This document shows, piece after piece, positions 38,436-38,681 of a stretch of 64,000 nucleotides of DNA. Both the position numbers and the translations under genes were made by a program. Origin of the DNA: Octopus vulgaris (Eukaryota); contig OX597816.1 in assembly GCA_951406725.2 (NCBI GenBank), positions 54,932,001 to 54,996,000 of the forward strand, read 5' to 3'. The notes under the pieces were generated by a model. That model did no database searches and was not told the DNA's origin. It saw nothing but the letters and a program-made list of their open reading frames with translations. Positions within the stretch are counted from its first letter, which is position 1. Each line of letters opens with the position of its first letter.

Positions 38436-38681
38436 TCAGATTATGATACATTTGAAGCACTTCGAAGAGATTTCTGAGCGAGGGTGTGGTTTCGAAAATA
38501 ACACTTGATCAGCAAGTTTTTTTATGAGTTTATAGGAATATTGTATGTCTTCAGAGGTCGCCTGATAGGCATGAACAACAAATCGAAGGAACACATTATC
38601 GTCAATTTTGGAACATCCTATGTGAATTTCTCTGGTCAGGGTAAGCGATTGGATTAACTCCTCATTGATTTCATTGTTCCC
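38436..38681 (-). CDS. DDC: DDC-like terminal coding exon (81 aa + TGA), ends in CaaX-like CIII
   Basis: ttacag|GGGAACAAT...; [13 protein letters not shown]...IHIG...FLRFVV...IKKLADQVL matches the DDC C-terminal domain; TGA at 38436-38438. Confidence 0.92.
   Translation of the reverse strand, partial: GNNEINEELIQSLTLTREIHIGCSKIDDNVFLRFVVHAYQATSEDIQYSYKLIKKLADQVLFSKPHPRSEISSKCFKCIII

Follow-up and report, generated by a model that had tools for sequence, protein, structure and literature searches.

A C-terminal CIII motif in a divergent Octopus AADC-like paralog and its possible origin from 3′ untranslated sequence

The AADC-like gene on the minus strand of the window (the whole 64,000-nucleotide stretch of Octopus vulgaris DNA analysed here) ends in Cys-Ile-Ile-Ile and a stop codon, and this ending is present unchanged in a spliced transcript. 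A Cys-aliphatic-aliphatic-X sequence at the C-terminus (CaaX) is the signal for prenylation, a hydrophobic X favouring geranylgeranyltransferase I (GGTase-I), and in Ras and Rho proteins a nearby Cys or Lys acts as the second membrane signal. Characterised animal DDC is generally described as soluble and cytosolic. Association of mammalian DDC with membranes has also been reported (PMC7031182, in the part available). The account preferred here, which as a whole stands about an even chance of being correct, is that CIII is a young ending of a divergent paralog, that it was made from the 3′ UTR by a 26-base deletion, and that it is probably geranylgeranylated, as a by-product of this event and not as a conserved function.

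The gene end in genome and transcript

Seven exons with AG/GT ends encode 256 residues in the window, and 255 of these 256 are identical to residues 240-495 of O. sinensis XP_036356876.1; the single difference, Asp339, is common to the O. vulgaris GenBank model CAI9719283.1. The terminal exon opens at 38681 behind an AG acceptor and closes with TGA at 38438-38436, the gene end reading Cys-Ile-Ile-Ile-stop over 38450-38436 on the minus strand (Cys codon 38450-38448, Ile-Ile-Ile 38447-38439). The N-terminal half of the gene falls outside the 64-kb window, and positions below 240 were taken from the O. sinensis and O. bimaculoides records and not from window DNA; the full-length protein used for the tests is P0001, whose residues 240-495 lie in the window. 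The features are as follows.

61579..61645, minus strand: furthest-upstream exon in the window, with TLGTTS and Thr246 (residue comparison)
60754..60848, minus strand: exon with Asp271 (residue comparison)
60244..60311, minus strand: exon with the PLP-binding His-Lys, human His302 and Lys303 (residue comparison)
59634..59727, minus strand: exon with the catalytic-loop Tyr, human Tyr332 (residue comparison)
53306..53404, minus strand: exon with loop 3, altered at human-numbered positions 348, 353, 356 and 358 (residue comparison)
43955..44056, minus strand: exon with LVCFRLK at its end, spliced to the last exon (splice ends, spliced contig)
38436..38681, minus strand: last exon, 81 codons and TGA, C-terminal domain and tail (100% identical to O. 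sinensis XP_036356876.1; 0 differences from the spliced contig)
38439..38498, minus strand: tail beyond the folded domain, 20 residues (pLDDT below 50 for residues 483-495)
38448..38459, minus strand: C-x-K-C core, Cys489 and Cys492 (common to the window, O. bimaculoides and organism D)
38441..38448, minus strand: site of 26 more bases in organism D, where the window has one copy of a 7-nt imperfect repeat (contig comparison, by hand)
38439..38450, minus strand: CaaX motif Cys-Ile-Ile-Ile (yeast GGTase-I screen score 0.055 at 37 °C, class below 0.2)
38200..38435, minus strand: 3′ UTR, at least this far, the contig extending past 38200 (nearest ATTAAA at 38264 and 38009)

The first-pass annotation had described a decarboxylase ending in the CaaX sequence CIII at 38439-38450, and both the frame and the stop are confirmed on the minus strand. 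The stop is also confirmed in a spliced contig, from run X15 (a run of unrecorded kind), which spans 38200-38683 with 0 differences and 0 gaps at a depth of 256, unchanged through CIII-stop, its loose end at 38683 being the end of the preceding exon. Because this contig continues into the preceding exon, the CIII stop sits in a spliced transcript. Contigs at the locus were compared from four of the 24 listed runs, among which run X5 matched only the repeat at 38275-38342 and is hence uninformative on the gene end. In three runs, many unrelated contigs also match this short stretch of the 3′ UTR, which is thus a dispersed repeat.

Transcripts could instead leave the exon before the tail, as they do in CAI9719283.1, which exits at 38460, drops the tail and runs into the canonical DDC to give a 900-residue fusion; this model is identical to window residues 240-487 and uses a segment at about 21582-21495. 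Such an exit is extremely improbable, however, as the donor at 38460 reads GTGCTT, compared with GTAAG or GTAAA at the six real donors, the RefSeq O. sinensis protein terminates at CIII, and the X15 contig crosses 38460 without a joint or a difference. CAI9719283.1 is most likely a fused annotation that hides the CaaX, and the GT at 38460 may see minor use.

Several repeats and mobile elements were recorded around the gene. Two of its introns each carry one copy of a 1622-base direct duplication (47773-49394 and 55671-57292, 99.8% identical), which is either a recent insertion or an assembly duplication, and two partial RVT_1 retroelement copies, 95% alike, are found at 45534-46892 (minus) and 36074-37056 (plus), one intronic and the other downstream of the gene in the opposite orientation. 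The segments 37173-37812, just downstream of the gene, and 9848-10374 are imperfect inverted repeats of about 640 and 530 bases (85-88%) and are probably non-autonomous DNA transposons. Also present are a 1083-base direct duplication (10368-11442 and 11870-12949, 98.8%), an 814-base inverted duplication (46858-47669 and 49389-50200, 99.3%) and a minisatellite at 25601-26397 with about 4.6 copies of a unit of 165-180 bases.

The enzyme and its paralogs

P0001 scores 428 bits against PF00282 (cut-off 27), and its model superimposes on human AADC (8ORA, Foldseek) with a TM score of 0.94 and an rmsd of 1.3 Å; by sequence, too, human AADC is the best match with a solved structure. The canonical O. 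sinensis DDC (XP_029633174.1) is a separate protein, and the window paralog is 52-53% identical to canonical Octopus DDC. In a quick maximum-likelihood tree of 36 proteins, without HDC and with long-branch placement possible, the window gene (paralog A) forms a clade with paralogs B and C (support 100, on a stem of 0.91 changes per site) that nests within the cephalopod DDCs, and all members of the A/B/C clade found are from Octopus. Public gene models (X2 and CAI9719283.1) suggest the gene order C, A, canonical DDC on one strand.

Two further observations concern exchange between these genes. RefSeq O. sinensis X2 (P0002, XP_036356878.1) combines the N-terminal half of paralog C with the C-terminal half of paralog A, with the joint at the exon starting at 60848 and the last difference at residue 256, and is either a merged gene model or the product of a genuine splice between genes that puts another pocket on the same tail. 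In O. bimaculoides, paralogs A and B (P0004 versus P0141) are 88-98% identical per 50 residues over 101-350 and 40-76% identical elsewhere, a pattern that suggests gene conversion or exon shuffling of the middle region.

In human numbering, P0001 keeps Lys303, His192, His302, Asp271, Thr246, Tyr332 and Arg355, while Thr82, Ile101, Gly102, Phe103, Ala148, Asn300, Phe309, Asp345, Arg347, His348, Leu353, Arg356 and Arg358 are changed. The catechol pocket Thr82/Ile101/Gly102/Phe103 becomes S/D/V/I, the loop-3 network Asp345/Arg347/His348/Leu353 becomes N/T/K/C, and the phosphate contacts Ala148 and Asn300 both become Ser; all 88 other AADCs compared have Gly102, Phe103, Arg347 and His348. In aromatic aldehyde synthases (insect DHPAAS, plant AAS), His192 is replaced by Asn or the catalytic Tyr by Phe. 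The window paralog does not fit this group, His192 and Tyr332 being kept in P0001. AADC itself is a textbook dimer. The pockets also differ among the three Octopus paralogs (P0001, P0004, P0141, P0144, P0012), position 101 being Asp in A and Val in B and C.

PLP, catechol and loop-3 roles are described for most of the altered and kept residues in the available parts of PMC8003434 and PMC12443470. Of 188 strongly conserved columns, P0001 departs from the consensus at 56 and the canonical O. sinensis DDC, itself one of the 88 reference rows, at 12. Since the substrate pocket is rebuilt, the protein is probably no DOPA decarboxylase; we infer from its residues either that it decarboxylates another substrate or that its activity is weakened, and in the preferred account it would be a PLP decarboxylase acting on something other than L-DOPA. 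The earlier description of an amine-synthesising DDC therefore holds for the PLP and catalytic residues, which are kept, but not for the catechol pocket, which is rebuilt, nor is this protein the organism's DDC ortholog. Compared with animal DDC/AADC (human 3RBF and 8ORA; XP_029633174.1), with which it shares PF00282, the fold and the PLP and catalytic residues, and in whose cephalopod clade it nests, the window paralog is distinguished by a long stem, a rebuilt catechol pocket and loop 3, and a 20-residue tail with two cysteines.

CIII as a candidate prenylation signal

All 8000 CXXX motifs have been scored with yeast GGTase-I (PMC11304957, in the part available), in a screen that uses a Ydj1 reporter and takes depletion as the sign of prenylation, and in which canonical geranylgeranylated motifs are depleted; the class scoring below 0.2 holds 137 of the 8000, has the profile Cx[V/I/L][L/F/I/M/V] and includes Rho and Ras motifs. 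CIII scores 0.055 there (5 reads at 37 °C versus 87 in the naive library), beside 0.014 for CIIL, 0.063 for CSII and 0.78 for CISI, which bears out, in this yeast reporter, the earlier expectation that its hydrophobic X suits GGTase-I. The FTase screen of PMC10320760, as far as its available part goes, gives CIII an EF of 0.96 and a heat-map value of 3.57 against a cut-off of 3, but most CXXX are reactive there, and the screen does not discriminate for CIII and adds little.

With regard to the tail, AlphaFold places a helix of low confidence at 485-494, which might fold back against the protein, from an alignment that is shallow in this region (2 of 94 aligned rows reach the tail). A possible second membrane signal is Cys489, a candidate acylation site three residues before Cys492; no polybasic stretch was found in the last 20 residues, and their net charge, +3, is equal in the non-CaaX O. 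bimaculoides ortholog. As CIII scores with canonical motifs and the tail lies beyond the fold in a low-confidence part of the model, prenylation is plausible, and, judged from motif and model, the CIII tail is probably prenylated in vivo. By the standard pathway of prenylation, trimming of the last three residues and Cys methylation (PMC11304957, in the part available), GGTase-I would put a C20 lipid on Cys492, the last three residues would be trimmed and the Cys methylated, and the lipid would tether the enzyme to cytosolic membrane faces. The window protein resembles the CaaX proteins of GGTase-I (Rho-type CVLL, CIIL) in its terminal C-a-a-X with a branched a2 and a hydrophobic X, in the yeast-screen score class of this motif, and in its upstream Cys; unlike them, it lacks a polybasic stretch, its motif is missing from the nearest ortholog, it is a metabolic enzyme and not a GTPase, and its modification is predicted only.

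An ending of the CIII type is rare for one gene, yet many are expected per genome. The pattern C-x-[VIL]-[LFIMV] ends 18 of 5084 stop-terminated segments in the six frames of the window (0.35%), and, given a Cys, x-[VIL]-[LFIMV]-stop is supplied at 479 of 127,976 window positions (0.37%). Cys at -4 is found in 4 of 121 proteins (P0001-P0121), namely two isoforms of the window gene, snail CDNM and a stick-insect isoform; the last of these terminates at CSLL within the fold and conforms to the C-x-[VIL]-[LFIMV] pattern, in this truncated protein apparently by chance.

The matching motif of the insect isoform lends some weight to the reading that CIII is real but unused, with little or no prenylation in vivo, if the tail packs, is trimmed, or belongs to a poorly active enzyme. 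The low-confidence helix and the 56 changed AADC columns are in agreement with this, as is the crippling of human AADC by changes at Arg347 and Leu353 (PMC8003434 and PMC12443470, in the parts available). Nevertheless, an unused motif is rather unlikely, as the frame is intact, the splice donors are strong, the spliced contig is deep, most of the pocket changes are found also in the O. bimaculoides ortholog, and CIII falls in the best-substrate class.

Origin and conservation of the tail

Judged from the sequences compared, the CIII motif is not conserved in orthologs. The O. bimaculoides ortholog XP_014775473.1, 87% identical overall, ends SKDCLKCMISIFH (...CLKCMISIFH) with Cys at -7, and Cys is likewise not at -4 in organism D, whose contig (run X12) joins that upstream exon by a splice as well and has 50 differences in about 470 bases. 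The first-pass annotation had named unrelated ortholog tails lacking Cys at -4 as evidence against a CaaX anchor; the ortholog tail proves to be related, but its Cys at -4 is missing. Paralogs B and C and the cephalopod DDCs have unrelated tails without a terminal Cys. Searches of the last exon for orthologous tails gave 3 matches among 37 candidates, all Octopus, against longer proteins and 0 among 3 candidates against shorter ones; none of 19 weak matches in a 50%-identity library extended into the tail, and an Atlas search returned generic AADC clusters only, with no further orthologous tail. The paralog evidently does without the motif in O. bimaculoides, so that the motif is not essential to the paralog as such; given its absence from this nearest ortholog, a central role for it in the amine signalling of cephalopods is also unlikely.

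Close to the C-terminus, organism D and the O. bimaculoides protein disagree at 4 residues, and D therefore counts as a third lineage, possibly sister to O. bimaculoides. Compared by hand, its contig has 26 extra bases behind 38441 and its end reads C-L-K-C-M-I-S-I-F-H-stop, while the window's Ile-Ile-Ile-stop codons fall within its 3′ UTR. The 26-base block is flanked by a 7-nt repeat (6/7 matching), and deleting from copy to copy in organism D reproduces the window sequence without a mismatch and accounts for the apparent substitution at 38445 as well, whereas the reverse event would need an insertion of mostly unrelated bases and a substitution. A deletion is the likely direction, on an argument from mechanism in an unrooted comparison of two states in three lineages. 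In the preferred account, an older tail consisting of C-x-K-C and hydrophobic residues would have been shortened through slippage between the two 7-nt imperfect repeats, and the 26-base deletion would have drawn 3′ UTR codons into frame behind an existing cysteine.

The opposite polarity, a CaaX ancestral for the paralog and lost in the O. bimaculoides/D line through a 26-base insertion, is quite improbable. It would agree with the finding that most tail residues are common to D and O. bimaculoides, as in sister lineages; no outgroup was found in the protein searches, and bat GBP5 provides a documented case of a CaaX lost in one lineage, with relocalisation (PMC13128109, in the part available). 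However, the 26-base block is no tandem copy of its neighbours, its short-repeat flanks are those of slippage deletions, it happens to hold an open frame to its own stop, and one further substitution would be required. In bat GBP5, as in the octopus paralog, a small C-terminal change flips the prenylation status within a lineage (PMC13128109), but the bat case is a loss through a stop codon with relocalisation shown, whereas the octopus case is a probable gain by deletion, with its modification predicted.

The short form of the tail is found in the O. sinensis record, the window, and organisms A and F (the contig of organism F having 2 differences and no gap over 365 bases), and its carriers are near-identical, with 0 to 2 differences in 365-484 bases. 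Between the window and organism D, 13 of 51 tail bases differ, compared with 17 of 222 in the UTR and 9 of 183 in the domain (40 of the 50 differences placed); the excess of tail over UTR has a Fisher p of 0.0008, or of 0.026 if all 10 unplaced differences lie in the UTR, for a region picked after looking, and it could reflect selection rather than accident. Faster evolution of the O. sinensis copy, as the tree would have it (0.12 versus 0.028), was dropped as outgroup-dependent, the ratio of O. sinensis to O. bimaculoides change being 28:9 and 27:10 against paralog B, 19:10 against paralog C and 9:9 against canonical DDC; the near-identity of O. bimaculoides A and B over residues 101-350, such as gene conversion would produce, also weighs against it.

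Tail divergence about three times that of the UTR, with C-x-K-C kept in 3 of 3 lineages, would also fit an adaptive switch of anchors, in which an older two-Cys hydrophobic tail, amphipathic or S-acylated, targeted membranes and the O. vulgaris/sinensis line swapped in a selected prenyl anchor that placed amine synthesis on vesicles or granules, a narrower version of the first-pass proposal. When the 121 proteins are ranked by the hydrophobicity of their last 9 residues, both A-type tails come within the top six, the long form has a hydrophobic moment of 0.59, the short form recurs in the four sources named above, and GAD65, of the same Pfam family, is palmitoylated and vesicle-targeted (PMC2853570, in the part available). 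Such a switch is nonetheless unlikely, as the persistence of both Cys falls within chance when 25% of sites have diverged (about 0.3, estimated by hand), the sharing of the short form by near-identical carriers shows little, the basic charge is not raised, and the faster O. sinensis protein change vanishes against canonical DDC.

GAD65, palmitoylated at Cys30/Cys45 and clustering at presynaptic vesicles, is a lipid-anchored transmitter-making decarboxylase beside a cytosolic sister (PMC2853570), and in this the window protein may resemble it; the modification of GAD65 is an N-terminal S-acylation shown by experiment, whereas in the window case a C-terminal prenylation is predicted. No paper on the Octopus AADC-like paralogs, or on an AADC that is prenylated, came up in literature searches (enzyme and prenylation queried separately, subscription papers mostly outside coverage), and the main text of PMC10244343, supplements apart, has no mention of octopus or cephalopod.

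With regard to the lipid-anchored amine-synthesising enzyme put forward in the first-pass annotation, the probably usable CIII, the stop in the transcript, the second Cys three residues upstream and the tail beyond the fold support the idea, while the motif is not conserved and the catechol pocket is rebuilt. It is doubtful whether the fullest version holds, in which tandem DDC duplicates acquired new pockets and one became membrane-tethered, the O. vulgaris/sinensis line exchanging a hydrophobic, possibly S-acylated tail for a UTR-derived geranylgeranyl anchor, to yield a prenylated transmitter-family decarboxylase producing an amine at the membranes of vesicles or granules. Should the protein be prenylated, the orthologs would offer a natural before/after pair for a lipid-anchor signal born from untranslated sequence, and prenylation would join the routes by which group II decarboxylases reach membranes. 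Regardless of the CaaX, the three divergent Octopus AADC-like paralogs, with their catalytic residues intact and their pockets rebuilt, hint at unassigned amine chemistry in octopus, and these pockets are possibly more interesting than the CaaX itself.
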